From Candidatus Saccharimonadota bacterium (GTDB taxonomy: Bacteria; Patescibacteriota; Saccharimonadia; Saccharimonadales; Saccharimonadaceae), in the NCBI GenBank assembly GCA_024682595.1, contig JAIKZA010000008.1, forward strand, positions 10,697 to 74,696: a DNA stretch of 64,000 nt, given 5' to 3'. Both the position numbers and the translations under genes were made by a program. Under the pieces are notes generated by a model. The model was not told the origin of the DNA, did not search any database, and was given only the letters and a program-made list of their open reading frames with translations. Positions 6,087 to 64,000 of this stretch are shown in pieces; within the stretch, counting starts at the first letter, position 1, and each line of letters starts with the position of its first letter.

Positions 6087-6317
6087 TTAATTAATCGACC
6101 ACTTCGAGTCGACTTCATACCATTGGATTAGACTAATTACTTTTTCGGCTATTTTTGTGTCTGTTTTTGCTTGTTCGACATAGTTATGCGCTATTCTTTG
6201 CACTATCGTGAAATCGCTCATATCAAGGTCGTTAAAATCCGCCTCTTTTATAGATGAAAACTGTTTCATCCAGTATGCTAACTCTTTTTTGGTTGTGCTA
6301 TCGTTGATATTATCCAT
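6087..6317 (-). CDS. Hypothetical small acidic protein (76 aa)
   Basis: ORF overlaps the stop of the upstream HNH gene by 8 nt, suggesting translational coupling. Confidence 0.5.
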   Translation of the reverse strand: MDNINDSTTKKELAYWMKQFSSIKEADFNDLDMSDFTIVQRIAHNYVEQAKTDTKIAEKVISLIQWYEVDSKWSIN

Positions 6318-16709: not shown

Positions 16710-16729
16710 TTTCGATAATTATATCATTG

Positions 16730-17125: not shown

Positions 17126-17156
17126 ATAATAATTCTATCACGGCTTTTTACGCATG

Positions 17157-17219
17157 TTTTCCACATATTTGTGTACATTTTGTAGATATTTTTCCACATT
17201 TTTTATGTCTTTTTCCACA
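17157..17219 (+). promoter_or_regulatory. Cluster of three TTTTCCACA (DnaA-box-like) motifs upstream of the LexA-like gene
   Basis: Boxes at 17157-17165, 17190-17198 and 17211-17219, all in the same orientation. The same 9-mer is used around dnaA. Confidence 0.5.
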
Positions 17220-17235
17220 TACCTAGCTTTTTGCA

Positions 17236-17266
17236 CTAAAAAGCCGCAAACCAGAAGGTTTGCGGC
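17236..17266 (-). terminator. Rho-independent terminator of the 68-aa gene
   Basis: Perfect 10-bp stem GCCGCAAACC/GGTTTGCGGC with a 4-nt loop, then TTTTT on the minus strand. Confidence 0.85.
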
Positions 17267-17287
17267 TAAAACTATCATAAAAATGAA

Positions 17288-17494
17288 TTATTTTTTGCGA
17301 GAAACAGTCAAGAAACCGTTGCGTGGGTTTTCGTTAACTTCGCGATCCTCAGGGAGGTCACATGGAGTACCTTTTTCGTTCTTCTCAGTCTTGGTGAAGA
17401 AATAAATGGTCTGTGGCTTGCCGCCGCGAAGGGTTACTTCGGACTTGTGAAGGTAGTAAGTGACGCCCTTTGAGTTAGTATGTTTATAAGCCAT
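17288..17494 (-). CDS. Small basic protein (68 aa), function unknown
   Basis: Strong SD GGAGGAAAG, its own promoter and its own terminator. Confidence 0.7.
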   Translation of the reverse strand: MAYKHTNSKGVTYYLHKSEVTLRGGKPQTIYFFTKTEKNEKGTPCDLPEDREVNENPRNGFLTVSRKK

Positions 17495-17526
17495 TTTTAA
17501 GCTTTCCTCCGTTAGTTGATACTCTT

Positions 17527-17555
17527 ATCTTATGACCCCTGTTTAATGCTGTCAA
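17527..17555 (-). promoter_or_regulatory. Candidate promoter of the 68-aa gene
   Basis: Minus strand: TTGACA (17555-17550), 17-nt spacer, TAAGAT (17532-17527). Confidence 0.5.
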
Positions 17556-17592
17556 GGGGTTTAAAGCTTATTTTTTACCGTTTTTAATACTA

Positions 17593-27557: not shown

Positions 27558-28448
27558 GTGAGAACAACAAAGATCCTTTCCATTGCATTAACACTACTCT
27601 GCGCGTCACTGACTGCATGCGCAGGGGCAACAAAACCGAATCAGCAGCAGCAGCAGACCGTAAGTCAGCCGGCAGCTGAAGCTCAGCCCGAAGACAACGT
27701 GAGCAGCGTCGGTATCGAATCTCCGGACAACAGCAGAGCCGAAAAAGACAAGGAAGCTCGGGAAGAGCTTTATCCTGAAAAAGAGCCTGAGCATGAAGGC
27801 GACGTCGGTATCGAATCTCCGGACAACAGCAGAGCCGAAAAAGACAAGGAAGCTCGGGAAGAGCTGGAACGCCAGCAGGAAGAAGCCGAAAGGCAGCGCG
27901 AAGAAGAGGAGCGCCAGCAGGAAGAACAGGCATACTCTGGAAACGGCACTTATATCCTGAGTGACGGCACCGAAGTACAAACCGAACATAGGATCGAGGA
28001 CTATATCGAGAAAAATGAGTATCGCGTGAAGAGAGATGGGGTTATAGTTCCTAAACACGAGTTTATTCTTGATGTCGGAAGAATGTGCTACGACATCTTT
28101 GGCTCTGGCGAGCTCGAAGGGGCAGCTGGTTTCGATTTTGAGGGCGGCGGAGTCGAATTCTCAGAGTTCGACAAAAAGAATCTGGCGCACGCAATTACTA
28201 TTGAGGTAAGAGACGCCGACAATTTTGCAGCTTACTCCATCGTAAAGATGTTCGACTGCTCAATGCAGGCAAACTGGCTTCCCGACGACGAGCACGATAT
28301 AAAAGTCGGTGAGTCGTATATGCATTTAGACTTAGCAGTACTTATTTTGTACGGGCTCGAGCAGGCGGAAACCAACCCTAGACGGGATATTTTTGCGGAT
28401 ATCTCGTTTGTAAGCAATTACGGTAGCAAAGACGCTCGACGTTGGTAG
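27558..28448 (+). CDS. Lipoprotein with a duplicated E/K/R-rich segment and an unknown C-terminal domain; compositionally foreign
   Basis: GTG start, signal peptide with lipobox LTAC. Visibly higher G+C than the flanks. Confidence 0.8.
   Translation: MRTTKILSIALTLLCASLTACAGATKPNQQQQQTVSQPAAEAQPEDNVSSVGIESPDNSRAEKDKEAREELYPEKEPEHEGDVGIESPDNSRAEKDKEAREELERQQEEAERQREEEERQQEEQAYSGNGTYILSDGTEVQTEHRIEDYIEKNEYRVKRDGVIVPKHEFILDVGRMCYDIFGSGELEGAAGFDFEGGGVEFSEFDKKNLAHAITIEVRDADNFAAYSIVKMFDCSMQANWLPDDEHDIKVGESYMHLDLAVLILYGLEQAETNPRRDIFADISFVSNYGSKDARRW
27707..27865 (+). repeat. Exact 63-nt direct repeat (27707-27769 and 27803-27865), 96-nt period
   Basis: The two copies are identical. Each encodes VGIESPDNSRAEKDKEAREEL. 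Confidence 0.95.
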
Positions 28449-28479: not shown

Positions 28480-28506
28480 AGCCTCGCTACAGATGCGAGG
28501 CTTTTT
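28480..28506 (+). terminator. Rho-independent terminator
   Basis: AGCCTCGC / GCGAGGCT stem with a 7-nt loop, then TTTTT. The T-run abuts the stop of the convergent gene. Confidence 0.75.
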
Positions 28507-31376: not shown

Positions 31377-31473
31377 AATTATCCCAATTATAGCATAAAC
31401 AATTTGTAAATATCTAATAAGCACTTGCTTTTTTTATTAGATGATGATTAGATTTAAATAGGAGTGCTATATT

Positions 31474-32079
31474 ATGGCAAAAACAAAAATTCAAACAACA
31501 AGGTCAAATAAACACACCGCCATGATGATAATTGGTGGAGTTTTTCTTGTTGCGGTGCTTTGTTTTGGCGCTTTAGCTGGCATAAAAATGGCAAGCAAGG
31601 ACGAAAAAGTAGTAATTGAAGAAAGCGATATTAATACCGCAAATACAGAAAAGGAACAAAAACAGCCAACTCCCGAATCGGATATTGACAAAAATTACAC
31701 CACCCCAGGAAACGAAGCGAAGGCAAAAAATGACGAACTCGAAAAAAGACAACACCAACAAGTAGAAAGAAATGAGTCTGGTCTAAAGAAAGCAAATGTA
31801 TTATTGCACGATCCTTATGTCGTAGGAGAAAAAACAGTAATTAGTAGTACTATCACGAATATTGTCGAAACCGAGGGAACCTGTAGCTATATATTCACAA
31901 AAGATACTCAGTCCGTAACGAAGATGACTTCAGTATTACCTAATGCAAAAAACACTGTGTGCGAAGCGGTAGTGCTTGAAAAAGGATCACTCAGTTCAGG
32001 AGAATGGAAAGTAAGGCTTGAATATAAATCTAATTTATCGGAGGGCGTGAGTGAAACACAAACTTTTACAATTCAGTAA
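31474..32079 (+). CDS. Hypothetical membrane-anchored exported protein
   Basis: GGAG SD, one TM helix and a Cys-containing beta-rich C-terminus. Confidence 0.6.
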   Translation: MAKTKIQTTRSNKHTAMMIIGGVFLVAVLCFGALAGIKMASKDEKVVIEESDINTANTEKEQKQPTPESDIDKNYTTPGNEAKAKNDELEKRQHQQVERNESGLKKANVLLHDPYVVGEKTVISSTITNIVETEGTCSYIFTKDTQSVTKMTSVLPNAKNTVCEAVVLEKGSLSSGEWKVRLEYKSNLSEGVSETQTFTIQ

Positions 32080-34375
32080 ATTAATAGCCGTAGTAGTATT
32101 TTTGGTAGTATTCTTTGGGCTTGCTGTTAAAAATACACCAGACTCTACCGCTATTAAGGCTACAGATTTTAAGGCTGGGCGCATTATTGATGATGGCGTT
32201 TTTTATAACTCTGGCAGCATGTCGGTAGCGGATATTCAAAATTTTATGGATAGCCACTTGCCGACTTGCGATATGTGGGGCACTCAAAAAATCGGTTACG
32301 GTTATTACATAAAAGGTAAAGCGGTAGATCCAAATATTACTCGCGCAGAATATGCCAGAAAGATGCGCACCGAAGGTGGCGATAGTCGCTATCATGATGC
32401 ACCATATGTTTGTATTAATAAGTACTACGAAAACCCAACTACGCATAAAAACAACTTCGCTACTAGAGGCGTAGCCGAAGAAGGGATGCTTTCAGCCGCA
32501 CAGATTATTTATAATGCAGCAAAAGAATTTAATATTAATCCGCAAGTTCTATTAGTGATGCTGAAGAAAGAAAGCTACGCTTGGGGCGACGATTGGCCAA
32601 CTAAAAATGAGTTCGATACTATAATGGGCTATGCCTGCCCAGATAATGCGGCTTGCGACACGAAATATTATGGTTTTTATAATCAGGTAACTAGGGCAGC
32701 CTGGCAATTAAACTATTACAAAGAGCATATTTATAGCTACAATTATCACCCGTTCACTACGAACAAAATATACTATTCACCGACATATTCTTGTGGTCAA
32801 AAATCGGTCTATATAGAAAATTACGCCACCGCTTCCCTCTATATTTATACTCCTTACACCCCAAACGATGCAGCTCTTAGAAATTACCCCGGCACAGCAA
32901 CTTGTGGTTCATATGGTAATCGAAATTTCTTTATGTATTTTAGCGAATGGTTCGGCAATCCGTTGCTTCCGAGTGAATATGAAAAAATAGAGGAAGCCTA
33001 TGAGTTATTAGGTGGAGAAGAAAAATTTGGCGCTAAAATAGGGACGATTAGTACTAATAAGGCTACTGGCATATATTGGCAACAGTACGAGAACGGATAT
33101 GTCTTAGGCAACTCAACATACGGCTTCCACGAATCATCCGGCAAGATACGTGAAGTATGGCGAAGCTTTGGTTTTGAGGGAGGAAAAATGGGCTTCCCAA
33201 TTGGCGAAATACTAACAAATGAAGAAACTGGTATAACTTACCAGCAATATCAGAACGGGTATATTCTAGGCAACGAAGAACTCGGCTATTACGAGTCGAT
33301 GGGCGGTATATATGAATACTGGAAAGCGAATAATTACGAAAAAGGTAAATTAGGTTTCCCAATTAGTAGTATTAAATCCGAAAGGACTACTGGCGGAGAA
33401 TATCAGCTCTACGAGCATGGAGTCGTGATAGGATCAGCCAAGACTGGCTATTATACTATCAGTGAAGAATATCTTCAAAAGTGGTTAAAGAACCCGTCAG
33501 AGTACGGCCTACCGTCTGAAGACGAAACTAATAAACAATTAACTTTACAAGCCGCCCTATTTACTAGTGATGGGTTCATTATTAGTGGTGGCATCTATAA
33601 GAAATGGCTAAGTCTCGATCTCGGTAAACCAATAGATATATTGAGAAGTAATAAGAATACTGGAATCTACTGGCAGGAATACGAGAAAGGTTACGTTTTG
33701 GGCAATGCAAAGTATGGCTTTTATGAATCATCAGGTCCAATCCGCCAGGTTTGGAAGAGCTTTGGTTTCGAGGGTGGTAAGTTTGGATTCCCAGTAGATG
33801 ACATAAGAACTAACGAAAAGTCTGGCATCATTTACCAGCAATACCAGAAGGGCTACATTGTCGGTAAGGATGATCTTGGTTATTATGAGTCAACTGGTAA
33901 AATACGCGATTACTGGCGTAGATTTAATTTCGAAAACGGAAAGATGGGCTTCCCTATTAGTAACATTAGTACTAATACTAAAACTGGGATTTATTTCCAG
34001 GAGTACGAGAACGGCTTCATACTAGGAAACGACAAATATGGCTATCATGAATCTACTGGTAAAATACGTGAAGTTTGGAGAAGCTTCGGTTTTGAGGGTG
34101 GTAAGTTTGGATTCCCAGTAGATGACATAAGAACTAATACGGCGACGAATATGACCTGGCAGCAATATCAAAACGGCTATATTGTTGGGAATGATAAAGT
34201 TGGATTCTATGAGTCTACCGGCGCGTTACGCGAATATTGGCGCAGAAGCGGCTTCGAGAGCGGAAAGATGGGCTTCCCAACAAGCAACGTAAGAACAAGT
34301 GGTAATTATCAGTATCAGCAATATCAAAATGGTGTTTTATATTATAATACTAAAACCAAAAAATACACTTGGTGA
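32051..34375 (+). CDS. Secreted cell-wall protein: N-terminal domain of about 300 aa (possibly muramidase-like) plus about nine LGFP repeats
   Basis: Signal anchor. Repeated G(K/R)(M/L/F)GFP....T....G..YQ.Y..G.I.......G.YES.G.I...W units. GTG start. Confidence 0.85.
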   Translation: MKHKLLQFSKLIAVVVFLVVFFGLAVKNTPDSTAIKATDFKAGRIIDDGVFYNSGSMSVADIQNFMDSHLPTCDMWGTQKIGYGYYIKGKAVDPNITRAEYARKMRTEGGDSRYHDAPYVCINKYYENPTTHKNNFATRGVAEEGMLSAAQIIYNAAKEFNINPQVLLVMLKKESYAWGDDWPTKNEFDTIMGYACPDNAACDTKYYGFYNQVTRAAWQLNYYKEHIYSYNYHPFTTNKIYYSPTYSCGQKSVYIENYATASLYIYTPYTPNDAALRNYPGTATCGSYGNRNFFMYFSEWFGNPLLPSEYEKIEEAYELLGGEEKFGAKIGTISTNKATGIYWQQYENGYVLGNSTYGFHESSGKIREVWRSFGFEGGKMGFPIGEILTNEETGITYQQYQNGYILGNEELGYYESMGGIYEYWKANNYEKGKLGFPISSIKSERTTGGEYQLYEHGVVIGSAKTGYYTISEEYLQKWLKNPSEYGLPSEDETNKQLTLQAALFTSDGFIISGGIYKKWLSLDLGKPIDILRSNKNTGIYWQEYEKGYVLGNAKYGFYESSGPIRQVWKSFGFEGGKFGFPVDDIRTNEKSGIIYQQYQKGYIVGKDDLGYYESTGKIRDYWRRFNFENGKMGFPISNISTNTKTGIYFQEYENGFILGNDKYGYHESTGKIREVWRSFGFEGGKFGFPVDDIRTNTATNMTWQQYQNGYIVGNDKVGFYESTGALREYWRRSGFESGKMGFPTSNVRTSGNYQYQQYQNGVLYYNTKTKKYTW

Positions 34376-52239: not shown

Positions 52240-52246
52240 TGAGATA

Positions 52247-52510
52247 TGTGGAAAAGCCGTGAATAAACTTGTAGAAAAGATGGTTTAAAAGATGTGGATG
52301 CTAAATGTGAAAAAGTATAAAAAGTGGAATAACCCAAACTCATCGACCAACTTTTTACACAAAGCCCGTCTTTTACACGAGTTTTCCAAAATATTTTCGA
52401 CAGGTTTTACACAAATTTTTTCATCAATTACGCCCCTGTTAAATATGAGTTTTACCAGTTTTGCACATAGAACTACTATTACTACTACTAATTTATTAAT
52501 AATGGAAAAG
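52247..52510. other. oriC core: eleven DnaA-box-like 9-mers plus an AT-rich candidate DNA-unwinding element (DUE)
   Basis: Five boxes in the TGTGGAAAA orientation (52247, 52270, 52293, 52306, 52323). Six boxes in the TTTT(A/C)CACA orientation (52353, 52371, 52382, 52405, 52450, 52459). Then AT-rich ACTACTATTACTACTACTAATTTATTAATAAT. Confidence 0.7.
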
Positions 52511-52536
52511 GAATAAACTTTTAATTGGAGGAGAAA

Positions 52537-53640
52537 ATGGAGATTGAAGTATTACAAGACAGACTCGCTAAAGCACTAAATACCGTAAGTCGTGTAGCTG
52601 CAAGCACAAAAGCTGGGTTGCCAATCTTAAGTAATGTCCTTTTGAGAGCTGAAGAGAATCAATTAACATTAACAGCCACAAATATGGAGATGGCTATAGT
52701 TCAATACGTTAACGCGAAAGCAAAAAAGAACGGTATCATTACGGTACCAGCAAAGCTTTTAGCAGAATTTGTTTCTAACTTACCAAAAGATAACGTTGTT
52801 ATTAGTACGAAAGATGATAAGTTGACTGTTTCGGCCGGCAAATATAAGTCCACAATTAATGGTATTTTGGCGGATGATTTTCCGGAATTGCCAAAAATCG
52901 ATGAAAAAGAAGCAGTTATCTTTAAGATTAGTGTGGACATCTTTAAAGAAGCGGTTAATGAGGTGATAATTGCTTCTAGTAATGATGCGACGCGTCCGGC
53001 TTTGACTGGTGTTTATTTTAATACTTTCGATGGGTCGTTATATATTGCGGCAACGGATGGTTATCGTTTAGCCGATCGTAAGTTTGTGGATGAAGTAAAG
53101 AGCGAAATAAAAGCTATTGTTCCGACAAATGCTTTGCAAGAGGTGATCCGTTCTATTTCGGACAATATGGATGAAATAGAAGTTTTAATCAACGATAGCC
53201 AAATTCGTTTTAGGATGGGTGAAATTGAGATAACTTCAAAACTAATAGATGCAAGTTTTCCAGATTACCGTCAATTAATTCCGAAAGATTGTTCGAATAT
53301 AATTGAGTTAGATAAAGCGGAATTAATTAGAATGACGAAGGTTGCGGCGTTATTTGCGCGCGAAAGTGGCGGTTCGATTGTTTGTGAAGCAAAAAAAGAA
53401 GAAGGAAGCTTTTCGGTAAGTGCGGTTGCGTCGGAACTTGGGGAAAACTCTTCAGCTATGGAGGCGGTAGTTTCTGAAGATGGAAAAGTAGTACTTAATT
53501 CACGATATTTATTAGATGCATTGAATTCGACGATTGAAGGAAAGATAACTTTTGGCTTGAGTGGGAAACTAGCTCCAGTAATAATTAAAAATGCTAAAAA
53601 TAATGATTATACGCATATCATTATGCCACTTAAAAGCTAA
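52537..53640 (+). CDS. dnaN: DNA polymerase III beta sliding clamp
   Basis: Three-domain clamp pattern (ATDGYRLA, PDYRQLIP). The ATG at 52537 follows a GGAGGAG SD; the ORF-track TTG at 52525 is rejected. Confidence 0.95.
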   Translation: MEIEVLQDRLAKALNTVSRVAASTKAGLPILSNVLLRAEENQLTLTATNMEMAIVQYVNAKAKKNGIITVPAKLLAEFVSNLPKDNVVISTKDDKLTVSAGKYKSTINGILADDFPELPKIDEKEAVIFKISVDIFKEAVNEVIIASSNDATRPALTGVYFNTFDGSLYIAATDGYRLADRKFVDEVKSEIKAIVPTNALQEVIRSISDNMDEIEVLINDSQIRFRMGEIEITSKLIDASFPDYRQLIPKDCSNIIELDKAELIRMTKVAALFARESGGSIVCEAKKEEGSFSVSAVASELGENSSAMEAVVSEDGKVVLNSRYLLDALNSTIEGKITFGLSGKLAPVIIKNAKNNDYTHIIMPLKS

Positions 53641-54659
53641 TGAATATTGTTAAAAAAGTTAGTTTAAAAAACTTCCGTTGTCACGAGGAATTTGATTTAG
53701 ATTGTAATCGTCCGACGACTTTAATAATCGGCGAAAATGGAAGTGGAAAAACTTCGGTTTTGGAGGCTATTTATCTTGCACTACGTGGAAAAAGTTTTAA
53801 AGGTGTGGATAAAGAAATCCTAAAAAGAGAGGCGGATTTTTATCGAGCCGAGATTGAATTGATGGATGCTCAAAAAATAATAATACGTTTTGACGGTCGA
53901 AAGAAAGAATTTGAGATTGATGGGAAAAAGAGTCTAAGGCTACCGAAGAAAAATCGTTATCCGGTAGTGCTATTTGAGCCGGATGATATTTATTTAGTTG
54001 GTTCCTCCCCGTCGCGAAGGCGTGATTATTTTGATGAATTATTTAAGCAAATTAATGAGAATTATGGAGCTGCTTTAAGTAAGTATAATAAAGCTTTGCG
54101 TCAAAGAAACGATTTATTAAAGAATGAGATTGTTAGTAGAGATGATTTATTTTCGTGGAATGTGATGTGTGCAAATTATGGTGCGGAGGTTATTCGCCGG
54201 CGTGTGCATAATCTTAAAAAGATTAATGAAAAGATGACGGATATTTATAGAAATATTGCGAAGAATGGCGATGAATGCTCAATTAAATATATTGGGGCTG
54301 AAGTTGATGAGAATGATTATTTAAAGAATTTGGAAAACAATTTTGAACGTGATTGCGTGTTGGGATATACGACCTTTGGAATTCATCGCGATGATTATGA
54401 ATTTATTTTTAATAAAAAGAAGGCGGATGGATCGGCTTCGCGTGGCGAAAATCGTAGTATGATTTTGTCATTGAAATTTATTGAGGCGCAAATATTGGAG
54501 CAGGAAGTTGGCAAAAAACCAGTTGTATTATTAGATGATATATTTTCGGAATTAGACGAAATGCGTCAGAGACATTTGATTGATAATTTTAAAAACTATC
54601 AGATGATTATAACGAGTACGGCAGTACCGAGCGAGATGCGTGTAGATAAGAAATTATAA
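53640..54659 (+). CDS. recF: DNA replication and repair protein RecF
   Basis: GENGSGKTS Walker A, RGENRSMILSLKF signature-like block, VVLLDDIFSELD Walker B. Synteny with dnaN. Confidence 0.9.
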   Translation: MNIVKKVSLKNFRCHEEFDLDCNRPTTLIIGENGSGKTSVLEAIYLALRGKSFKGVDKEILKREADFYRAEIELMDAQKIIIRFDGRKKEFEIDGKKSLRLPKKNRYPVVLFEPDDIYLVGSSPSRRRDYFDELFKQINENYGAALSKYNKALRQRNDLLKNEIVSRDDLFSWNVMCANYGAEVIRRRVHNLKKINEKMTDIYRNIAKNGDECSIKYIGAEVDENDYLKNLENNFERDCVLGYTTFGIHRDDYEFIFNKKKADGSASRGENRSMILSLKFIEAQILEQEVGKKPVVLLDDIFSELDEMRQRHLIDNFKNYQMIITSTAVPSEMRVDKKL

Positions 54660-54660
54660 A

Positions 54661-55575
54661 TTACGGAGCGAGGGAGTTTGCCGAATTTAATATATCCTGC
54701 GGGACGTTGGGTGTATTATCTTTGGTAAGCAGTGGCTGGGGTTTGGATATAACATGCCAATTCTCTCCATCTTTCTTTAATAGAATACGATAGTGGTTAT
54801 ATGAAAAATCACGATCAAAATCGTAAATATATAGAGTTGTAGCATAATAATTATCAACGAGGTTTTGACCATCGGATATTGTGTATTTTCCAAGATTGAA
54901 TGATGATCTTATAGTCTCTTTCGGTGTGGATTTTGGGGATTCATTATAAGTATCGAAGGGATTTTCTAGATTAAAAGATATTTGATAATCTGTTAATTCG
55001 ACATTCTTGAAGGTTTTCATTTTAGCGACAGCATCATCGAGAAATTCTGGTGTGGTTTTTATTTTAATTAATGGGATATTATCTTCTAAATAAGTGTAAC
55101 TAATAGAAAATAAACTATTATTTATAGGCAAATAATTTAAAATTGGATACTGTTTTTTGATTGCAATACCCTCTTCATTCAAGGCTCTTCCTACAATACC
55201 TTCCGCATTGGCGAATTCTTGTTTATGTAAATTTGCATACGATCTACCTTCGTCGTCGGTGGCGGATAATATCCCGACAATATAATGGTAATTGTTTGAT
55301 ATTTCTATAGTGCGTTCAATACTACTGAAGTGGTCGCATTTGACTTTGACGGTATATGACCCTGGTTCTAGCCAGATATTTGAATTATTATTTACTGGCT
55401 CATCATTAAGTGTAACTTCTGCGATATATGGCGCATACTGAATAGTTGTTTTAATCTTATTAATACGTAATGTGAAAGTCGCAATAAAAATTGCAAGCCC
55501 GACGAGTAAAATGATGCCAAATAATATAAATAGTAGATGTGTATTATTGGCGATTCTACGAGTTGTTTTTTTCAT
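54661..55575 (-). CDS. Membrane-anchored exported protein with a PEGA-like beta-sandwich; last gene of the T4SS-like operon
   Basis: N-terminal TM helix. AEVTLNDEPV....LEPGSYTVKVKCDHFSSIERTIEI resembles a PEGA domain. Confidence 0.55.
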   Translation of the reverse strand: MKKTTRRIANNTHLLFILFGIILLVGLAIFIATFTLRINKIKTTIQYAPYIAEVTLNDEPVNNNSNIWLEPGSYTVKVKCDHFSSIERTIEISNNYHYIVGILSATDDEGRSYANLHKQEFANAEGIVGRALNEEGIAIKKQYPILNYLPINNSLFSISYTYLEDNIPLIKIKTTPEFLDDAVAKMKTFKNVELTDYQISFNLENPFDTYNESPKSTPKETIRSSFNLGKYTISDGQNLVDNYYATTLYIYDFDRDFSYNHYRILLKKDGENWHVISKPQPLLTKDNTPNVPQDILNSANSLAP

Positions 55576-55585
55576 TCCCCTCCCC

Positions 55586-57457
55586 TTATGATAGATTATT
55601 TTTAATAAAATAACGTTGGCGATTATCTATAAAAGCAATCTTAAATAAAGTATTATTACTAGATATATTATTAGCAACGATATTTGTTTGATAATTATAT
55701 TTAGCGATGCGATAATTTGGTTTACGATACCATCTAACAGTCACGCCATTGCCGTGCATTAAATCTTCTCTTCCGGCCATTGGAGCACGACCTGCGCCGA
55801 TTGTAGAATATGAGGCTGAGGCTATTACGCTATCAAATCCAGGTATTTCGCCAACATATATGAAAGTATGTCCGCTTGAAAATGCGACGTCGCCTGGTTG
55901 TAATATACTCGTATCGACCGCAATACTAGATGCGCTATTTAGAAGTTGCCAGCCATGTGATTTTGCCCAAGCCTCTTGTGCGTCTGTATTCCCCTTTCCG
56001 TCATTATATTCTGGTTCAAGCCCGGAGTTTTGAACCAAAATAGTTACAAAACCGCCACAGTCTATTCCTGGTACGCCGGCGACAGATCCACCAACATATC
56101 GGCCTTCACTGATTGAACGAGTAACCGCTTCTGCGTAGGCTGGCATGCGATCGTGCCATGGCGCTTCATGATATTGCGGCCAAGCATAGCTAAGAACTAG
56201 GGATTGGAATTCCCCGCTTACGCTACATCCATTTTCATTAGTATTTGAGTTGATAGCTTTCCAAATAATTTCCGCGAATAATTCGGTGCCGGCACCGTTG
56301 GGGTGGAACATGTCGGAATCTAAATATGTGTTTGGATTTTGATCTACTGTTGTAGCCCAGTCTGCAATTATAATATTTTGGTTATTTTTGGAAAAAGTTT
56401 TAAATAAATTATTGTTTGAAGTAAATAAATTTTTATTTTTACCATGATAATTTGTGACAAAAACGATAGTTTTATTTGCGCCAATTGTCGTGATAGCTTC
56501 TTCAATACTTGAAGCGGTGAGATTGGCTGAGTTTGTTCCGAGAGCAAAAACAACGATATTCTTTAATTCTATAGATTTTGCTACGTTTATACCTTCGCTC
56601 CAAGGTCGACCGCTACGTCCATTTATGTCTGAATCGGTAAGTTCTGGGAATCTTTTTTTGAAGGCATTGTGCGATCTTACAGTGATAGAGTCGCCAATTA
56701 TTGTGATGTTTTTACCATTTTCGGCATTACCATTCATGGAGCCAGTATTTTGTATACCTTTTCCGGCGTATTGGCTGTAAAATTCTTTAGCGTAATCGCG
56801 GCGAGCTTTAGCTGCTTGATAGAGGCGGCCAGCATACGGTGCATAATAAAGAATTTCAGAGCTTCCACCTACGGCGCGTTCGAATAAGACAAGGAAAATT
56901 TCCGCAGCCATTTCGGGGGTGTCGGCTTTCTTGATTTCTTCTTGCCAATTTAAATCTTTTTCTTCTAATGTGAATTCAAGTTCGACTTGTAGAAGTTTGT
57001 CGTAGTCGGCTTTTGGTATTTTTTGTTCTGCATCACTTCCCCAATATTCAGACGAAGTATACTTGCTAAGTCCAGCATCTTCTATTCTTCTAAAAAGTGT
57101 ATTTCTACGGCCGCCGCCCCACTGGAATATGCCAAAATATGTGCCATTGCTAGATCTGGTGGGGACTAGGCCCGATTCGGCCTTGGCGTTTCCAAGGAGT
57201 CCAGCCGTTTGGGCATCATTAAAACCATGCTCGATAAAGAAGTTCCATATTTTCTCTGCAGAATCGCTACCTGCGAGTGTAGTAGCGCTAGTATTGCATT
57301 TATCCGCATTCCCGTCCGGGTTATAGTAATAAATGCCATTCTTATTGAACATATCTAGTATTTCTTCGCTTGGGGTAGCGGCGCAAGTTGAAGTAGTCAA
57401 TGTTGCGGCAATAATGATAGAGGCAACTGATTTTAGAATAATGCGGATTTTTTTCAT
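55586..57457 (-). CDS. Secreted three-domain peptidoglycan hydrolase: phage-tail-lysozyme-like, SGNH esterase and NlpC/P60-like domains
   Basis: Signal peptide. LLGNAKAESGL...GIFQWGGGRR. SGNH blocks IIGDSIT, LGTNS and DMFHPN. GIDCGGFV and GHTFIYVG. The ATGA start/stop overlaps the upstream gene. Confidence 0.8.
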   Translation of the reverse strand: MKKIRIILKSVASIIIAATLTTSTCAATPSEEILDMFNKNGIYYYNPDGNADKCNTSATTLAGSDSAEKIWNFFIEHGFNDAQTAGLLGNAKAESGLVPTRSSNGTYFGIFQWGGGRRNTLFRRIEDAGLSKYTSSEYWGSDAEQKIPKADYDKLLQVELEFTLEEKDLNWQEEIKKADTPEMAAEIFLVLFERAVGGSSEILYYAPYAGRLYQAAKARRDYAKEFYSQYAGKGIQNTGSMNGNAENGKNITIIGDSITVRSHNAFKKRFPELTDSDINGRSGRPWSEGINVAKSIELKNIVVFALGTNSANLTASSIEEAITTIGANKTIVFVTNYHGKNKNLFTSNNNLFKTFSKNNQNIIIADWATTVDQNPNTYLDSDMFHPNGAGTELFAEIIWKAINSNTNENGCSVSGEFQSLVLSYAWPQYHEAPWHDRMPAYAEAVTRSISEGRYVGGSVAGVPGIDCGGFVTILVQNSGLEPEYNDGKGNTDAQEAWAKSHGWQLLNSASSIAVDTSILQPGDVAFSSGHTFIYVGEIPGFDSVIASASYSTIGAGRAPMAGREDLMHGNGVTVRWYRKPNYRIAKYNYQTNIVANNISSNNTLFKIAFIDNRQRYFIKNNLS

Positions 57458-60240
57458 ACAGTATAGTTCCTACGATCGACGAATAGCGGTTCAGTTATGA
57501 CGGAAAGATAATGATTACTTGATATTGGAGTTTTTGTGAAAGATAGTTTTACTTCTGGTTTAATATAATCACCAAATGAATCACGCGTTGATGGGTCATA
57601 TTGCGCTAATTCATTGGAATAATCTATATATTCGAGTAGAAAAGCAACATCGTCGGTGCTTAGTCCCGAAATACGCGAAAGGGTTCCTTTAAAACTATTA
57701 TCAACAGGATGAGCTTTTTCGTATTGTTCTTGATAAGCAAGAACAGGATTGGTCTCATTGTCTTCTTGACCTTGTATGTCGTATAAAATACGCATATCTT
57801 CGACATAGCGTTGGTAATATTTGAATTCGGAATCCCAACGGGGGTTATCGCTGGAATTTATGCAGTTTTTACCGGTTGCCCATCCTTGGTTATAAACGTC
57901 CTCTGCAGCATTTACGACGTCAATGATGTCATTTACGAATGGAAGGTTGTTTACAACTATTCCTCCATCCGTCTGTAATGCGTTCAAAATATTAGCGTCA
58001 GTTACGCCCCATGGCGATTCGCGGTTTACGCAAAAATTTATAAATTTAGCGAGTTCGGAATTGTCTTTAATGTCGCCGTTTTCGTTTAAATTTGGTTCGA
58101 TTGCGGCTAGATAACTAGGATCGTCTGGAGACATGTCGACAGTAGAGTAATCTGCGCTAACAATAGGATAACCGTACATGTCGCACATGGTGCCGCTAAG
58201 ATTAGTACATTCACTATATTGTGAGGTATATTTAAGATCGTCATCTAATGCAGCGGCAGTAGGAATGAGTGATTGGGTGGCACTACTGGTGACACGGGTG
58301 ACGTTGGCCATTATATTAATCAGTGAATTTGAGTATGAAAGGTACGAGAATTTAGACATGATTGAACCAAGAAAAGTGTTTGGGCTAGAAGTATCTAATG
58401 GGCTTCGTCTTAATCGGTCAATTTCCGCTTCTTGTGCAATGACGCGAGTGATTTGACGATTTTGAGTTTTAATAGATTCTTCGCTAGAAGGCATATATGC
58501 ACTACCTTGTGTGGCGAGCGAGAAATTGGCGGCGGCGGCTCCCTGCGAGAAGAGATTACCGGCTGGTATTCCTGTATATGATTCAAAAACATTACTTGCA
58601 AACATTTTTGTAGCGTATGGTACGATAGCATTTATAATCCCTGCAATAATGCCAGTAAGCGCGATTCCACCTACGGTCCGTGCGATAGCGCCTACTACAA
58701 AAGTTGCAAGTGCGCCACCTGGGATTGCAGTAGAAGCTAGCGAAACAATCGCAGAAGCAGCCATGACGCCCGAACAAACAACGTTGGTTCCGCCATTTAC
58801 CAAGACGATGCGCGTGGCGGCTTTTCTAATATTATCAAAGGAAAAAGGTTGAATCTCGGAATCTGAAGATAAGGTATTGCCCATGATGATTTTGGCGCCG
58901 GATGATTCTAACATAGAACCAGTGTAGGCTTGCGTAATTGGTTCTCCGTCGTCTCCGACATATTGAACTTCGCTAGTAGTTTGTTGGGTCATCAAGTTTA
59001 GTGCTTCGTTGATTCCAGAAGCTTCTCCTTCTCCAGCCATCATTTTACTGATTGACTCCATAAAACTAAGGAAGTAAGCGATTGATTGTTGGATTTGATA
59101 GGCAGATACGGCAACATTGATGAGATTTGCAATACGGAGGGCCGAACAGACCGGAACGCCGACTGATGATACTTTGCCGGCAATGCTATTAACCATGGCA
59201 TGCGCTTTTGATTCTGGCGTGGCGCCATCAATATTATTAATGTCGATATCTTCGCCGTTTTTTTGCTTTATCTCTTCGCCAGTTTCTTCGTCTGTACCAG
59301 TTCTAATTGTGTTAATTGAGCCATCGCTACCAGTGATGCGGCTGGAAACGGTGGATTGAAATTCATCCATGTCGGCATTTTTGTCGCCAGTGGATTTATA
59401 ATTGTCAAAGATGTCGCGCGTAGCGCCTTTCTTTTTGTAGTATGCTTCTGATGAATCGTCAAAAAAACCAGCTACGCGCCCACGTTTTGCGTTATAATAC
59501 GCCTCGCGAAAACTTGCATTCGATGCAAACTCATCTTGAAATTTATCGGCACTAATAGTTTTGTCGCCGTATTTTAAGACTGTTTTATAGCCGAGAGGAG
59601 CTTGTCCTGGTTCGAATTGATTATCTGTATTAATATGTCCAATTTCGATGCCATTTTTGGCTAGGCGATCTTGTAGATATGATGGGAAATATTTGTATCT
59701 ATGGGCAAAGAGGGAGCCAATTTCGACCTGGTCGCCACCATCAAGCATGTAAGCCATAATGCGAGCATTACGAGGGCTGTAAGAAGTAAATTGGAGATCG
59801 GTTGCTTGTGTATAGAGCGCAGATATATGTGGGGCCAACATAGATTGAGCAACATAAAAGAAAAAACCGCCCCCAAAAAGTACTGTAGTTATAGCACCGA
59901 GCGGAGCGACTTTTTTAAATAGACCGCGTGTTCTCCCACCCTTCCCTATCGTTCGATTTTTGCCTCGAACAGAATTGTGAAATGATTGTTGCCCTTGAGA
60001 TGAAAAGGCTTCGTTACTTTGGTTGCGTTCGCGACGACGAAGAACGTCGGAACTACTCTCGTGTGTTTTGTGGTTTTTAGTTTTAGGTTTTTCTCCATCG
60101 TTCTGGATTGGCTTTGAGGCATTTTTTTCGCCATCAGAAAGTTCTTTAAGAATATTCGATGGGCGAATATCCGGCTCCTCCATACCATTGTATGGATCAA
60201 TGGGTGTGCGGTACTGTTCTTTTTTTGGTGTGGAGACCAT
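57454..60240 (-). CDS. Large polytopic membrane protein of the T4SS-like locus (VirB6/PrgH/TcpH-type role inferred)
   Basis: 928 aa with a basic disordered N-terminus, TM helix, exported domain, central cluster of Gly/Ala-rich TM helices and a Cys-containing C-terminal domain. Confidence 0.75.
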   Translation of the reverse strand: MVSTPKKEQYRTPIDPYNGMEEPDIRPSNILKELSDGEKNASKPIQNDGEKPKTKNHKTHESSSDVLRRRERNQSNEAFSSQGQQSFHNSVRGKNRTIGKGGRTRGLFKKVAPLGAITTVLFGGGFFFYVAQSMLAPHISALYTQATDLQFTSYSPRNARIMAYMLDGGDQVEIGSLFAHRYKYFPSYLQDRLAKNGIEIGHINTDNQFEPGQAPLGYKTVLKYGDKTISADKFQDEFASNASFREAYYNAKRGRVAGFFDDSSEAYYKKKGATRDIFDNYKSTGDKNADMDEFQSTVSSRITGSDGSINTIRTGTDEETGEEIKQKNGEDIDINNIDGATPESKAHAMVNSIAGKVSSVGVPVCSALRIANLINVAVSAYQIQQSIAYFLSFMESISKMMAGEGEASGINEALNLMTQQTTSEVQYVGDDGEPITQAYTGSMLESSGAKIIMGNTLSSDSEIQPFSFDNIRKAATRIVLVNGGTNVVCSGVMAASAIVSLASTAIPGGALATFVVGAIARTVGGIALTGIIAGIINAIVPYATKMFASNVFESYTGIPAGNLFSQGAAAANFSLATQGSAYMPSSEESIKTQNRQITRVIAQEAEIDRLRRSPLDTSSPNTFLGSIMSKFSYLSYSNSLINIMANVTRVTSSATQSLIPTAAALDDDLKYTSQYSECTNLSGTMCDMYGYPIVSADYSTVDMSPDDPSYLAAIEPNLNENGDIKDNSELAKFINFCVNRESPWGVTDANILNALQTDGGIVVNNLPFVNDIIDVVNAAEDVYNQGWATGKNCINSSDNPRWDSEFKYYQRYVEDMRILYDIQGQEDNETNPVLAYQEQYEKAHPVDNSFKGTLSRISGLSTDDVAFLLEYIDYSNELAQYDPSTRDSFGDYIKPEVKLSFTKTPISSNHYLSVITEPLFVDRRNYTV

Positions 60241-60303
60241 AGATAATTATATTTTACAACATTTTTCTTAAAATGTCGAATCGTTCAGCGGATTATGAAA
60301 GGG

Positions 60304-62100
60304 TTATTTTTTAGTTTCAGTTGGGTTGGTAGTAATTAGGTCTTCTTCGGTATTTGATGCGACTATTTGAATATGTACGTGATTCTGACCAGCAAAGAAG
60401 AGACCTTGTCCGACTGGGAAATTTGAAAGACGTTTACGTTCCTCGTCGGTGAGTTTGAAGACGTCAGAAAGAACATCGACGGCGGATGCAGACTGTTTTA
60501 ATAGAAGCTGCATGGATGAGTTTGCGACGATGGCGCGACCCATCTTTGATGACATGAAATCCTCGACGTCCTGCGTAATAGTTGTGAGACCGAGATAATA
60601 TTTACGGGCACGTTTCGCAAGGCTGAATAGGAAGTTGGCTGAGTCTTCATATTTCATAAGCTGCCAAGCCTCATCTACGAGGAGGAGGCGACGTTTTTGT
60701 TCGGCGCGAACAATGTTCCAAATATGCGAGAGGACGATATACATAGCGACTGGGCGAAGCTCATCTTCAAGATCGCGAATATTGAATACAGCCATCTGAT
60801 TATTGATGTCGATATTTGATTGTTGAGAGAAAATACCCGCGAAGCTACCAGTTGTATATTTACGTAGACGCTGTGCGAGGCTTGGGCCAGAACCGCCCAT
60901 ATGCAGTAGGGTGTCAAATAGGTTCATGATAGTCGGTGGAACGGCGGTGTGAGTTAATGGGTCATTTGTGATGCCGGCGCGAGCATAGGTATCAATGAGC
61001 GCCTGATCAAGGTCAGCCTCTTCAGTTGGCGAAAGGCCAGCGCCGTTTCCCAACATGAGACGGAAGAGGCCATGGAGTGTGACAAGGTTAGCGCGAAGTG
61101 CGTCATTAGCATCTTCTGCGTCGACTACTTTTGGAAGGTCGAATGGATTGATGCGAACGTCGGAGTTAAGGCTGAGACGAACATAGGCACCGCCGACGGC
61201 GTCGCAAAGTTTTTGATACTCGTTTTCTGGGTCGATAATGAGAATTTCTGTGCCGACCATCATGGAGCGAAGCGCTTCAAGCTTGACCGTAAATGATTTA
61301 CCTGCACCAGACTTAGCAAAGACGACCATATTGGCATTCTCAAGCGAGAATCGGTCGAATATGACGAGACCATTATTATGCATATTGACACCATAAAGGA
61401 TGCCTTTTTCCTGAGTAAGGTCTGCGGATGTGAATGGGAAACTAGTAGAAATTGCACCCGTGTTCATATTACGACGAATCTGAAGCTGGTCGGAGCATTG
61501 CGGCATTGTGCTATTTAGGCCCTGCTCCTGCTGAGATGAAGCAACTTTGCTGAATACCATTTGTTGCCCAAAGATATTTTCGATTTTATGTTGGACGAAC
61601 TGTAGTTCATCTAACGAGTCGGCGTAAATGGTAACATATAGGCCGTAGCGGAAAAACTTTTCAGCACCGACCTGAAGCTGGTCGCGTAGATCTTCGGCAT
61701 CGGATATAGCGGCTTCTAGCTCTGGGTCGCGAACTTTTCCTTTCTCACTATTAATATTCATACTAGCTTCGAGCTGAGTAACCTTTTTAGTAAGGTTCTT
61801 CATCACTATGTCGGTGTCGACTGGGTATATATACATAGATACATCAATAACTTCGTCAATATTAATAATGGAACTTAGCCAACCAGTATAAAGCATACGT
61901 GGATACCCATACACATAGATGGTGCGACCGTATTTCGTACCAAGACGGAAATAATCTGAGTGAATCTCGATACTTGATGGAGAAATAAGGTCTCGAAGTG
62001 TGGTGATACCGGTCTCGAACGCTTTTTGAATTTCAACTTCTTCTTGAAGTTGAGCTTGTGCGGCAATATCTGCTGCGCTGATTTGTTTTTGCTTTGCCAT
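60304..62100 (-). CDS. virB4: VirB4-family T4SS ATPase (PrgJ/TcpF-like)
   Basis: N-terminal IEIHSDYFRLGTKYGRTIYVYGYP pattern, Walker A VFAKSGAGKSF, Walker B RLLLVDEAWQLM. Confidence 0.9.
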   Translation of the reverse strand: MAKQKQISAADIAAQAQLQEEVEIQKAFETGITTLRDLISPSSIEIHSDYFRLGTKYGRTIYVYGYPRMLYTGWLSSIINIDEVIDVSMYIYPVDTDIVMKNLTKKVTQLEASMNINSEKGKVRDPELEAAISDAEDLRDQLQVGAEKFFRYGLYVTIYADSLDELQFVQHKIENIFGQQMVFSKVASSQQEQGLNSTMPQCSDQLQIRRNMNTGAISTSFPFTSADLTQEKGILYGVNMHNNGLVIFDRFSLENANMVVFAKSGAGKSFTVKLEALRSMMVGTEILIIDPENEYQKLCDAVGGAYVRLSLNSDVRINPFDLPKVVDAEDANDALRANLVTLHGLFRLMLGNGAGLSPTEEADLDQALIDTYARAGITNDPLTHTAVPPTIMNLFDTLLHMGGSGPSLAQRLRKYTTGSFAGIFSQQSNIDINNQMAVFNIRDLEDELRPVAMYIVLSHIWNIVRAEQKRRLLLVDEAWQLMKYEDSANFLFSLAKRARKYYLGLTTITQDVEDFMSSKMGRAIVANSSMQLLLKQSASAVDVLSDVFKLTDEERKRLSNFPVGQGLFFAGQNHVHIQIVASNTEEDLITTNPTETKK

Positions 62101-63044
62101 TATTTTTGACTCCCTTCAGTACCTGGTTCACCCTTTTTAACATATAAGTGGGCAAGTTTATTGAAATCTCCTAGCGGCTCACGAACGGCGGTGTCTGGGT
62201 TATTGAAGTTGTAATAGAGCTGGCCTAGCTCTTTTGTGCTAAGGCGAACGGAGTGGATTCCGATTTGGAATAAGCCTGCAATAACGGCTTCTACGCGGTT
62301 GTTTATTTCTGTCACGGCCTTGTCGTAGGTGGCGCGGTCGATGCGAGTAATTGTTTGACCTTTGGCACGACTGAATGATTTGAAGAAATTCTTTGTTTGG
62401 GTTACGGCTTTTTCGGCTTCGGATGAAGTATAGTATGGAATTACAATAAAGAAAGATTTATCCATAATGTTTGCTTCCTGAGACAACTCGTCGATAAAGC
62501 CAATATAATCATCCATAAGAATGCCGAGGAGCATATTATCGTTGTCACGACGGAGTTCGGTTAAGCGATCTAGATAAGGTCCAATATCGACGCGTTGAGA
62601 ACGAATAAGGATTTGAACGGTAAAATTCAAGGAGTTTAAGAAGTTTTGATAAGAGTATTCAACCGCTTCACGCTCAGTCTCAGACATGAGATCAAAGTTA
62701 ATAGATTTACAGGCAACCACGGCCCTAAAGGAACCGTCTTTCATAATTACCATTGAGTCGCGTAACTCGGAAATAATTAATGACGCTTGAGTGGAAGTGG
62801 GATTTTCTTTTGGTGTAGCATCGCCGTTAGGAGCTTGTTGCTGTGGAATAGTGGTAGGCTGACCTGCAACCGGTTGACCCGCAACTGGTTGACCTGCAAC
62901 TGGCTGACTTACGATTGGCTGGCCAGCAACTGGTTGATTGGCAACTGGCTGGTTTATGATAGGTTGGCCAATAGGCGGCTGAGGAATACCGTTCATTGGT
63001 TGCGGGTTTTGCATTGGTAGTGGCTGTGGTTGATTTGGCTGCAC
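62100..63044 (-). CDS. Protein with an N-terminal QPxxx pentapeptide array and a VirB4-N-terminal-domain-like body
   Basis: GTG start with an AAGGAG SD. Stop TAA overlaps the virB4 ATG. The body (MVIMKDGSFRAVVACKSINFDLMSE...FFIVIPYY) parallels the N-domain of the downstream ATPase. Confidence 0.65.
   Translation of the reverse strand: MQPNQPQPLPMQNPQPMNGIPQPPIGQPIINQPVANQPVAGQPIVSQPVAGQPVAGQPVAGQPTTIPQQQAPNGDATPKENPTSTQASLIISELRDSMVIMKDGSFRAVVACKSINFDLMSETEREAVEYSYQNFLNSLNFTVQILIRSQRVDIGPYLDRLTELRRDNDNMLLGILMDDYIGFIDELSQEANIMDKSFFIVIPYYTSSEAEKAVTQTKNFFKSFSRAKGQTITRIDRATYDKAVTEINNRVEAVIAGLFQIGIHSVRLSTKELGQLYYNFNNPDTAVREPLGDFNKLAHLYVKKGEPGTEGSQK
62857..62976 (-). repeat. Eight tandem 15-nt units encoding QP(V/I)(A/V/I)(G/N/S)
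   Basis: Plus-strand GGYTGRCC(T/C)GCAAC(C/T)-type 15-mers read consecutively. Confidence 0.9.
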
Positions 63045-63053
63045 GTTAACTCC

Positions 63054-64000
63054 TTAATGTAATGAAATATAAACTTCGTCGTCTTTCTTTTCTTTAATAC
63101 GTTTCGCTTGTTGGGCGATGGTTTCAATGGAGAAGTCTGAGTTATTGGCGAGATCAATCATATTTTGGTCGGTTTGTTCGGCGACTTCTTTCATTTCTGC
63201 CTGACGCTTTTCTTCGGCCTCTTCCTGCTGGATTCTTTCTTGCTCTGCTCTTTCGGCTTCGATTCCGGCGACCATTGAATCTGACTTTATGATAGTGTCG
63301 TTATATTTTACGGCTTCATCACTAAGCGGATTACTTGGGATGATTGGTTTCGGCGCTGGAATTGACGAGTTATTAATGATGGGGTTATCTGGTAATGCAG
63401 GTGGTTGAGGCATTGGATATGCCTGAGGCTGTTGCATTGTTTGTGGCTGTGTAGTTTGTTGTGGCACTTGTTGATCGAGCTGCCCGTTATGATTGGTGAT
63501 GGTTGTGTTTTGGTTGTGGGTACTATTTTCAATAGCTGCGCGCATTTGACTAATAGCTAGATCATGGCGTGCCGACGCTCCATCCGTGAGAGTTTGATTG
63601 ATTAGATTATTACTGGCGGTTGTATTCTCGAACATGTCGGGAGTATCGTGAGCTTCGGCATAGACTTCTTCTTTTACGCCAGAATTAGGGGTTGTGCCCT
63701 TAATGGCGTAACCTTCAGTATCGATAATGTCGGCGAGGAATGAAAGGCGGTGGAGGGCTTCTTCTTGGTCGATATCTTTAGTACGGACTTTTTCGGTTTT
63801 CTTTGGAGCGGTAATTTTAATAGTCGTCTCTGGCTCGCCTGGCTCCCATGTGCGAACATGTGGCTTGAGATAAAAAGATACAACGGCGGACAGGTAGGTT
63901 TCCATCGGCTGATCCTTCTTTAGTGGTAAAGCGAGCGCGCCAAGAAGAATGATTGGCGGTATTAAGATGACGATAAAAGGTGGAAAAACTTGCCATAATA
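63054..64000 (-). CDS. PrgI/VirB3-like membrane protein with a long Q/P-rich and charged C-terminal extension (5' end outside the window)
   Basis: The frame stays open upstream of the ORF-track Met up to the window edge. It encodes LWQVFPPFIVILIPPIILLGALALPLKKDQPMETYLSAVVSFYLKPHVRTW, which matches the PrgI-family pattern (TM helices followed by ..G.P.E..L....F...P..R.Y). Confidence 0.6.
   Translation of the reverse strand, partial: LWQVFPPFIVILIPPIILLGALALPLKKDQPMETYLSAVVSFYLKPHVRTWEPGEPETTIKITAPKKTEKVRTKDIDQEEALHRLSFLADIIDTEGYAIKGTTPNSGVKEEVYAEAHDTPDMFENTTASNNLINQTLTDGASARHDLAISQMRAAIENSTHNQNTTITNHNGQLDQQVPQQTTQPQTMQQPQAYPMPQPPALPDNPIINNSSIPAPKPIIPSNPLSDEAVKYNDTIIKSDSMVAGIEAERAEQERIQQEEAEEKRQAEMKEVAEQTDQNMIDLANNSDFSIETIAQQAKRIKEKKDDEVYISLH

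Follow-up and report, generated by a model that had tools for sequence, protein, structure and literature searches.

A chromosomal Saccharibacteria-type type IV secretion locus beside recF, with a probable role in epibiotic interaction

We analyzed a 64,000-nucleotide stretch of DNA (the window) from a Candidatus Saccharimonadota bacterium (GenBank assembly GCA_024682595.1, contig JAIKZA010000008.1, positions 10,697 to 74,696 of the forward strand), which ends in a minus-strand cluster of type IV secretion system (T4SS) genes abutting recF. Sequence comparison makes this locus almost certainly the orthologue of SEML1_0004-0019 of Southlakia epibionticum (Se ML1) and a Saccharibacteria-type chromosomal T4SS. 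We consider it very probable that the system serves epibiotic interaction and is non-conjugative. A domesticated, non-conjugative T4SS of this kind is already published, and the window holds another strain's copy.

An initial annotation, made from the DNA sequence alone, had proposed such an apparatus and mentioned T4SS-like loci in Saccharibacteria, which the literature bears out. The region was first described by McLean 2020 (PMC7427843), who likened its array of small genes to pertussis toxin subunits. Wang 2023 (PMC10633639) pointed out how unusual the pilins are and that a coupling protein and a relaxase are missing, and found nearly all genes of SEML1_0004-0019 essential in co-culture by transposon sequencing (Tn-seq; Tables S1 and S2). 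A survey across Patescibacteria (Quiñonero-Coronel 2025, PMC12102498) places the VirB4 of the system beside the MPF-FATA type, and the system features in a 2025 review of T4SSs (PMC12857230). A 2024 PNAS perspective (PMC11665869) calls its role "completely unknown" and raises effector delivery and DNA uptake.

Results

A split VirB4 motor and its neighbors

Six co-oriented open reading frames (ORFs) occupy the minus strand of the window from 64000 to 54661. They represent the distal two thirds of the locus, which would extend from 54661 to about 71870 in window-equivalent coordinates. Exact look-ups of the TrsD-like and 928-residue proteins returned no record of the window's own strain, and the content beyond 64000 was read from conspecific metagenome contigs that share ~96% DNA identity with the window over 14 kb.

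The signature motor of the system is a 598-residue VirB4 ATPase (60304-62100, minus strand). It scores above the cutoff of the NF045971 conju_CD1110 model (E-value 1.4e-117; 393.9 bits versus a cutoff of 325), covering model positions 173-732 of 752, and also matches the Pfam TraG P-loop family PF19044 (1e-29) and the Mbov_0397 model (1e-80). Among PDB sequences, it matches VirB4 from Thermoanaerobacter (4ag5, 5.4e-49) and TrwK (1.9e-5). Both Walker motifs, A (KSGAGKS) and B (LLLVDEAW), are intact, confirming the assignment made in the initial annotation. The closest plasmid-encoded VirB4 proteins, from Actinobacteria and Firmicutes, share 30-38% identity, and weak matches to CedB (9.5e-14) and CedD (4.9e-6) fall far under the cutoffs of those models. 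PHROG matches of VirB4 and its TrsD-like neighbor to "terminase large subunit" do not signal a phage origin; the label is that of related P-loop proteins.

The TrsD-like gene (62100-63044, minus strand; GTG start) encodes a 314-residue protein that corresponds to a free-standing VirB4 N-terminal domain, as first proposed from its translation. It matches NF041427 TrsD (8.4e-8), the N-terminal ~170 positions of the VirB4 models NF045975, TIGR00929 and NF045971, and, in precomputed annotation, PF26593 (TraC-like). Because the ATPase lacks the N-terminal ~170 residues and the TrsD-like protein matches precisely that part, VirB4 is split into two genes. A search of PDB sequences with the TrsD-like protein returned low-complexity noise only. 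Its Pro/Gln-rich N-terminal region contains QPVAG-type pentapeptides encoded by a 15-nt tandem repeat of about 6 copies (62857-62970, minus strand; Tandem Repeats Finder), and the protein measures 309, 314, 324 or 329 residues among near-identical (~96%) strains.

Upstream of the TrsD-like gene lies a gene for a PrgI/VirB3-like membrane protein (63054-64000, minus strand). The assigned identity holds, as the full-length conspecific copy (L001:7953-9017) matches PF12666 PrgI at 8.2e-11; the gene in the window is truncated, with the N-terminus cut by the window end and the frame open to 63998. In conspecific strains, the full-length protein consists of 354 residues, with one strong transmembrane (TM) segment (residues 48-66 of the full protein) and a long, charged, Q/P-rich C-terminal extension.

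A candidate VirB6-like protein and a divergent pilin array lie beyond the window

The initial annotation missed both the pilin array and the position of VirB6, which lie beyond 64000. The conspecific contigs contain the full-length PrgI gene, a gene for a 935-residue TrbL/VirB6-like protein, a divergently oriented pilin array and an Hsp20 gene. The 935-residue protein has 8 predicted TM helices and a precomputed match to PF19590 (TrbL_3) that was not reproduced by hmmscan against current Pfam and NCBIfam, where no match was found.

The array consists of six PF18895 genes plus one weak match, and one of the pilins, 554 residues long, carries a fusion to Big_2 Ig-like domains. With matches to T4SS_pilin (PF18895), TrbC (PF04956) and NF045849, the array genes encode VirB2-type pilins and not the Ptl-type toxin subunits suggested by the earlier comparison with pertussis toxin. 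NF045849, matched by the pilin genes at L001:233-4972, is described as "Mbov_0395 family pilin-like conjugal transfer protein" and stems from integrative and conjugative elements (ICEs) of Mycoplasma; one match lies above the cutoff (46.7 versus 40 bits). The Patescibacteria survey holds that VirB2-like pilins are absent from MPF-FATA systems (PMC12102498), whereas the pilins described here match a model based on Mycoplasma ICEs, which calls that claim into question. By sequence, the pilins may have come with the monoderm ancestor rather than from diderm systems.

The distal genes encode a lineage-specific membrane protein and a three-domain wall enzyme

Downstream of VirB4, p928 (57454-60240, minus strand) encodes a 928-residue, Saccharibacteria-specific membrane protein, the positional orthologue of SEML1_0007. 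The protein has a disordered N-terminus, hydrophobic helices at residues ~112-147, 360-400 and 486-548, and a Cys-containing C-terminal domain; six cysteines are invariant (C365, C489, C678, C686, C737 and C793). No Pfam, NCBIfam or PHROG family matched p928. None of its 146 homologues carries a functional name; where a name is given at all, in a few cases, it is that of a hypothetical protein from a metagenome-assembled genome (MAG) of Candidatus Saccharibacteria or Nomurabacteria. An AlphaFold2 model built from a 34-sequence alignment reached a mean predicted local distance difference test score (pLDDT) of 55.6 and a predicted TM-score (pTM) of 0.57; Foldseek against the PDB gave nothing under E 0.19, and the family profile searched against PDB sequences gave nothing under E 0.17. 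BLASTP revealed no similarity between p928 and the TrbL-like 935-residue protein. The description of p928 as a membrane protein stands, and its candidacy as the VirB6 homologue does not: no family is recognized, and the VirB6/TrbL-like gene lies just outside the window. The profile, Foldseek and PDB searches likewise gave no support for a D,D-peptidase (DD-peptidase) domain like that of SEML1_0007. Longer orthologues of about 1100 residues (P0056, P0022) contain an extra CHAP domain. The C-terminal wall-hydrolase module of the p928 family therefore varies by lineage, with CHAP in the long orthologues, a DD-peptidase-like domain in SEML1_0007 and none in the window.

The next gene, p623 (55586-57457, minus strand), encodes a predicted exported cell-wall enzyme of 623 residues with an N-terminal hydrophobic segment (residues 4-22). 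Its three domains agree with the muralytic enzyme proposed from the translation. The first (residues ~64-230) is a phi29-gp13-type lysozyme that matches PF18013 at 8.3e-23 and phi29 structures by both family profile (3csr, 4.5e-6) and Foldseek (3csq, 4.5e-3). The second (residues ~247-400) is an SGNH domain that most resembles the catalytic C-terminal part of the peptidoglycan O-acetyltransferase OatA, with family-profile matches to 5ufy (1.1e-17) and 6vjp (2.5e-13) and a Foldseek match to the Staphylococcus aureus OatA C-domain (6wn9; E 7.7e-9, TM-score 0.86). The third (residues ~415-580) resembles NlpC/P60 cysteine peptidases, with DCGG and GHTFIYVG motifs and invariant C467 and H530; the PF00877 match is weak on p623 itself (0.04) and on record for the orthologue P0228. 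Glycan-cleaving and cysteine peptidase domains thus occur in one protein of a T4SS cluster, as in VirB1-type proteins such as PrgK and TcpG. The glycan-cleaving domain of p623 is of the phage-tail-lysozyme type and not the soluble lytic transglycosylase (SLT) type, and the OatA-like SGNH domain separates it from the cysteine peptidase. The presence of this domain in the wall enzyme of the clade hints that O-acetylated peptidoglycan is the target.

The last gene, p304 (54661-55575, minus strand), encodes a 304-residue single-pass membrane protein in the position of SEML1_0004/0005. The TM part of its earlier description is retained (residues 14-32); the PEGA part is weak, with PF08308 matching below threshold (E 0.0095; 16.3 bits versus 20.8). 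A search of PDB sequences with p304 yielded no match.

Translational coupling, an internal gap and head-on orientation to the origin

ORF coordinates and junction sequences bear out the proposed six-gene cluster with translational coupling. The TrsD-like stop and the VirB4 start overlap by 1 nt at 62100 (TAATG within AAAATAATGGCA), and p928 and p623 share a 4-nt ATGA at 57454-57457 (within GTATGAAAA). Ahead of the GTG start codon at 63044, the sequence at 63045-63056 reads CATTAAGGAGTTAACGTG, in which an AAGGAG Shine-Dalgarno sequence overlaps the PrgI stop codon. The p623/p304 junction reads TAAGGGGAGGGGAATG, and the sequence upstream of p304 reads GGGGAGGGG.

The sole sizeable gap in this otherwise tightly packed cluster is the 63-nt intergenic region between VirB4 and p928 (60241-60303, minus strand). 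It contains a promoter-like site that matches the consensus only (TCGACA, a 17-nt spacer and TAAAAT), together with TATAAT 7 nt ahead of the p928 ATG and no Shine-Dalgarno sequence. By its sequence, the gap may provide the three distal genes with a promoter of their own, or it may precede a leaderless start. Of the operon called earlier, the tight coupling holds at most junctions; a single transcript is not assured, given the 63-nt gap and its promoter-like site.

At its distal end, the cluster faces the convergent recF gene (53640-54659, plus strand; precomputed SMC_N and AAA_23 matches), which bounds the locus. A single base separates the recF stop codon (54657-54659) from that of p304 (54661-54663), and a terminator search found no terminator-like hairpin at this stop-to-stop boundary, both as initially described.

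The dnaA-dnaN intergenic region (52240-52524) is the probable oriC. It contains five relaxed DnaA boxes (TTWTNCACA) at 52247-52467, out of 18 across the whole 64 kb, and GC skew is positive from ~50.8 kb onward. Given the boxes and the skew, it is reasonable to place the origin here and to regard the T4SS genes as head-on to replication, both as put forward in the initial annotation. Elsewhere in the window, three exact TTTTCCACA nonamers fall within 63 bp (17157-17219, plus strand) in the intergenic region 16710-17592 and form a DnaA-box-like cluster distant from dnaA.

Conjugation genes are absent from view and the core order is conserved across species

The apparatus had been described as having no relaxase, coupling protein or integrase in view, and this agrees with what was found in the window, the conspecific contigs and the flanks of related loci. 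In the conspecific contigs, the ~10 kb beyond 64000 encode no VirD4, relaxase or integrase. Among the scanned window ORFs of at least 150 residues, no relaxase or coupling protein was found; the ORFs at 1800-2942, 3370-4302, 6310-7263, 27558-28448 and 28506-31424 carry no annotation. Related loci agree: in 80 species, the gene families recurring within ±10 kb of the locus comprise no integrase, relaxase or coupling protein, based on a Pfam summary of flanking ORFs that covers 25 of 65 families and that rare, single-locus coupling protein or relaxase matches could escape.

The related loci share their layout. VirB4 is 100% identical to the copy in a Candidatus Nanosyncoccaceae MAG, which assigns the window to a genome of that group. 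It shares 83-96% identity with its counterparts in 79 other genomes, almost all of which bear the label Saccharibacteria or Nanosyncoccus, and its relatives occur in at least 577 stretches of the species-genome collection. The core order (pilins, TrbL-like, PrgI, TrsD, VirB4) is retained in 72-80 of the 80 loci, with TrsD and PrgI directly upstream of virB4 in 78-80 and the pilin array present in 64-65. The flanks repeatedly contain DnaJ, RNase Y, ComFC and recF-dnaN-dnaA. Among the 58 loci with enough downstream sequence, recF-dnaN-dnaA follows in about 36 (about 60%) and DnaJ-RNase Y in about 21 (about a third); ComFC is encoded in 52 of the 80. This conserved order and housekeeping setting fit a fixed chromosomal, non-conjugative apparatus. 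Flanking ORFs identified at single loci are for the most part housekeeping genes too (FtsH, DinB, YidC), but include Cas9. The Cas9 gene fragment (L051:19443-21782) lies ~8 kb downstream of VirB4 in a record that bears the label Clostridiales bacterium and whose VirB4 shares 86% identity with that of the window.

Identity falls outward from VirB4, from 85% for VirB4 to 71% for TrsD, 50% for PrgI, 43% for the TrbL-like protein and 35% for p928. The three distal genes diverge fast (23-38% identity across the 80 related species), and the pilin genes reach 37-52% against a VirB4 median of 85%. Within the same 32 species loci, median identity is 85% for VirB4, 48% for DnaA, 60% for DnaN and 57% for RecF; these identities indicate that VirB4 is under strong purifying selection relative to the three replication and repair proteins. 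Base composition offers no case for a foreign island. GC content rises from 0.33-0.38 in recF and p304 to 0.45 in VirB4, and this rise is not evidence of recent transfer because similarly high values occur in aspS (0.48) and in further genes of the window.

The other 54 kb of the window contain housekeeping and cell-envelope genes. Its sole recombinase is a large serine recombinase (216-1742, minus strand; PHROG integrase, 1.5e-71) located 52 kb from the locus, with dnaA, dnaN, yidC, rnpA, aspS, murC and a polysaccharide cluster in between. A tRNA-Asn gene (183-257, plus strand) abuts the 3' end of the recombinase gene, and beside it lie the two ORFs without a family match at 1800-2942 and 3370-4302; the region 183-4302 may be the edge of an integrated element unrelated to the T4SS. 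Large envelope-type proteins are encoded further along, namely by the 972-residue ORF without a family match at 28506-31424 and by its neighbor at 32051-34375, a 774-residue protein with five LGFP repeats.

Comparison with known type IV secretion systems

In Se ML1, recF is followed by prealbumin/PEGA proteins, a PF18013 lysozyme/cysteine peptidase, an 1113-residue protein, VirB4, a TrsD-like protein, PrgI, VirB6-like proteins, six pilins, Hsp20 and ComFC (PMC10633639). The locus studied here has the same arrangement of dnaA, dnaN and recF on the plus strand, convergent T4SS genes in the same order and orientation, divergent pilins and Hsp20, and it too lacks a coupling protein and relaxase. 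The two loci also differ. One 304-residue terminal gene replaces the pair SEML1_0004 and SEML1_0005, the latter annotated as PEGA domain-containing (Wang 2023, Table S2). The middle domain of p623 is an OatA-like SGNH domain where Se ML1 has a second lysozyme-like domain, p928 lacks the C-terminal DD-peptidase domain of SEML1_0007, and a single VirB6-like gene and no equivalent of the NTF2-like SEML1_0012 were seen. Essentiality is known for Se ML1 only, from Tn-seq.

More broadly, the VirB4 clade surveyed across Patescibacteria combines TrsD, PrgI, VirB6 and arrays of 2-11 VirB2 genes with no relaxase, a distant type IV coupling protein (T4CP) and a position near dnaA (PMC12102498). The present locus conforms in its adjacent TrsD and PrgI/VirB3 genes, candidate VirB6 gene, VirB2-like array, lack of a relaxase, lack of a T4CP near virB4 and proximity to dnaA, dnaN, rnpA and rpmH. 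Conjugative MPF-FATA systems (pCF10 Prg, pGO1 Trs, Clostridioides difficile conjugative transposons, pCW3 Tcp and Mycoplasma ICEs) share the CD1110-family VirB4, PrgI/VirB3, a wall hydrolase of the VirB1 type with several domains (PrgK, TcpG), the lack of an outer-membrane core and, for pGO1, TrsD; the putative VirB6-like polytopic protein also has a counterpart in them. Unlike them, the locus contains no relaxase or T4CP, no PrgB-type adhesin and no recognizable VirB8; it has an additional pilin array, is chromosomally fixed, and is essential in a relative. T4SSs that function without a T4CP, such as Bordetella Ptl, Brucella VirB, Helicobacter pylori ComB and archaeal Ced, resemble it in having no coupling protein or relaxase. 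These systems are non-conjugative and show that export and import are both possible, but they have diderm or archaeal architectures and other accessory sets.

Discussion

A proposed machine at the epibiont-host interface

We propose that the locus encodes a T4SS that would act at the epibiont-host interface and not in conjugation. The wall enzyme p623 would open the peptidoglycan: its SGNH domain would remove or add O-acetyl groups, letting the lysozyme domain cut, and the lysozyme and NlpC/P60 domains would then cleave glycan and peptide. PrgI (VirB3), TrsD, VirB4 and the VirB6-like protein would form the membrane translocon, and VirB4 would drive assembly of a VirB2-type pilus reaching the host bacterium, with the variable pilins and the Ig-domain fusion providing contact. 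The role we favor over import, adhesion and conjugation is contact-dependent protein (effector) delivery or engagement of the host envelope, which stands at roughly even chances; export and import, taken as directions, appear finely balanced.

Several points weigh against this interpretation. A T4CP homologue may lie elsewhere in the genome: many Patescibacteria have VirD4-like genes at a distance from virB4, and in Se ML1, which is one of them, this gene is non-essential (PMC12102498). The VirB6 assignment comes from the precomputed PF19590 match, the eight predicted TM helices and the structure-based note of Wang on SEML1_0013, no VirB8-like gene was seen, and everything beyond 64000 is read from other strains of the same species.

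The most substantial competitor, though still a doubtful one, is an import machine, in which a T4CP-less T4SS comparable to ComB or Ced takes up host DNA, nucleotides or other macromolecules and thereby makes up for the epibiont's missing biosynthesis. The lack of a coupling protein or relaxase recalls known DNA-importing T4SS-like systems, ComFC is encoded in most related loci and adjoins Hsp20 in Se ML1, and Se ML1 can dispense with its competence machinery even though it cannot make nucleotides, with the T4SS named as a candidate route (PMC11665869). VirB4 also matches the CedB and CedD models, but so weakly that generic P-loop similarity accounts for it, and the locus contains no recognizable DNA-binding or nuclease component. 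Moreover, deletion of comEC abolishes transformation of Se ML1 (Wang 2023, as relayed in PMC12857230). Any import would consequently need another inner-membrane route. To our knowledge, no MPF-FATA type system has been shown to import anything, which counts further against this explanation. A more elaborate and rather unlikely version is a feeding device, in which a T4CP-independent, VirB4-powered pilus breaches O-acetylated host peptidoglycan, aided by the esterase-lysozyme-peptidase enzyme, and imports host macromolecules such as DNA or nucleotides, lipids and peptides; nothing specific favors it.

Quite unlikely is an organelle for adhesion or contact only, whose VirB2-like pilus holds the epibiont on its host with nothing translocated. 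The six to seven divergent pilin genes, the Big_2 Ig-like fusion, pilins so much less conserved than VirB4, and the lack of a coupling protein to recruit substrates would all suit such an organelle. Two type IV pili already serve attachment and motility in Saccharibacteria, however, according to PMC12206443 and Wang 2023, a full translocon (VirB3, VirB4 and VirB6) with three wall-degrading activities exceeds the needs of a simple adhesin, and the high identity of VirB4 suggests that an enzymatic role has been conserved. A working conjugation system or ICE remnant, whose relaxase, coupling protein and integrase lie out of view, is highly improbable. It would be in keeping with a VirB4 that exceeds the cutoff of the conjugative CD1110 family, with pilin-like genes of the Mycoplasma ICE family NF045849, with the large serine recombinase adjoining tRNA-Asn at 216-1742, and with the 109 relaxase homologues reported in 103 Patescibacteria genomes (PMC12102498). 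Yet this recombinase lies 52 kb away beyond housekeeping genes, the core order and housekeeping setting of the 80 related loci are unlike the behavior of ICEs, growth depends on the orthologous locus (Wang 2023), and the GC content of the present locus does not depart from the range seen across the window. A domesticated, non-conjugative T4SS, as initially proposed, is supported by the lack of relaxase, T4CP and integrase genes in view and by the fixed synteny.

Beyond providing another copy of a published system, the present analysis makes small additions, namely the conservation of VirB4 over DnaA, DnaN and RecF, the clade variant of the wall enzyme with an OatA-like SGNH domain, a lineage-variable hydrolase module in the ~900-1100-residue protein, and the Mycoplasma ICE-type pilin match, which is relevant to a possible origin of the pilins in the system's monoderm ancestor. 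The system is the only T4SS reported to be essential for its own bacterium, and it is conserved across a large uncultured radiation. If the feeding device were true, it would be the first essential, import-directed T4SS in bacteria.

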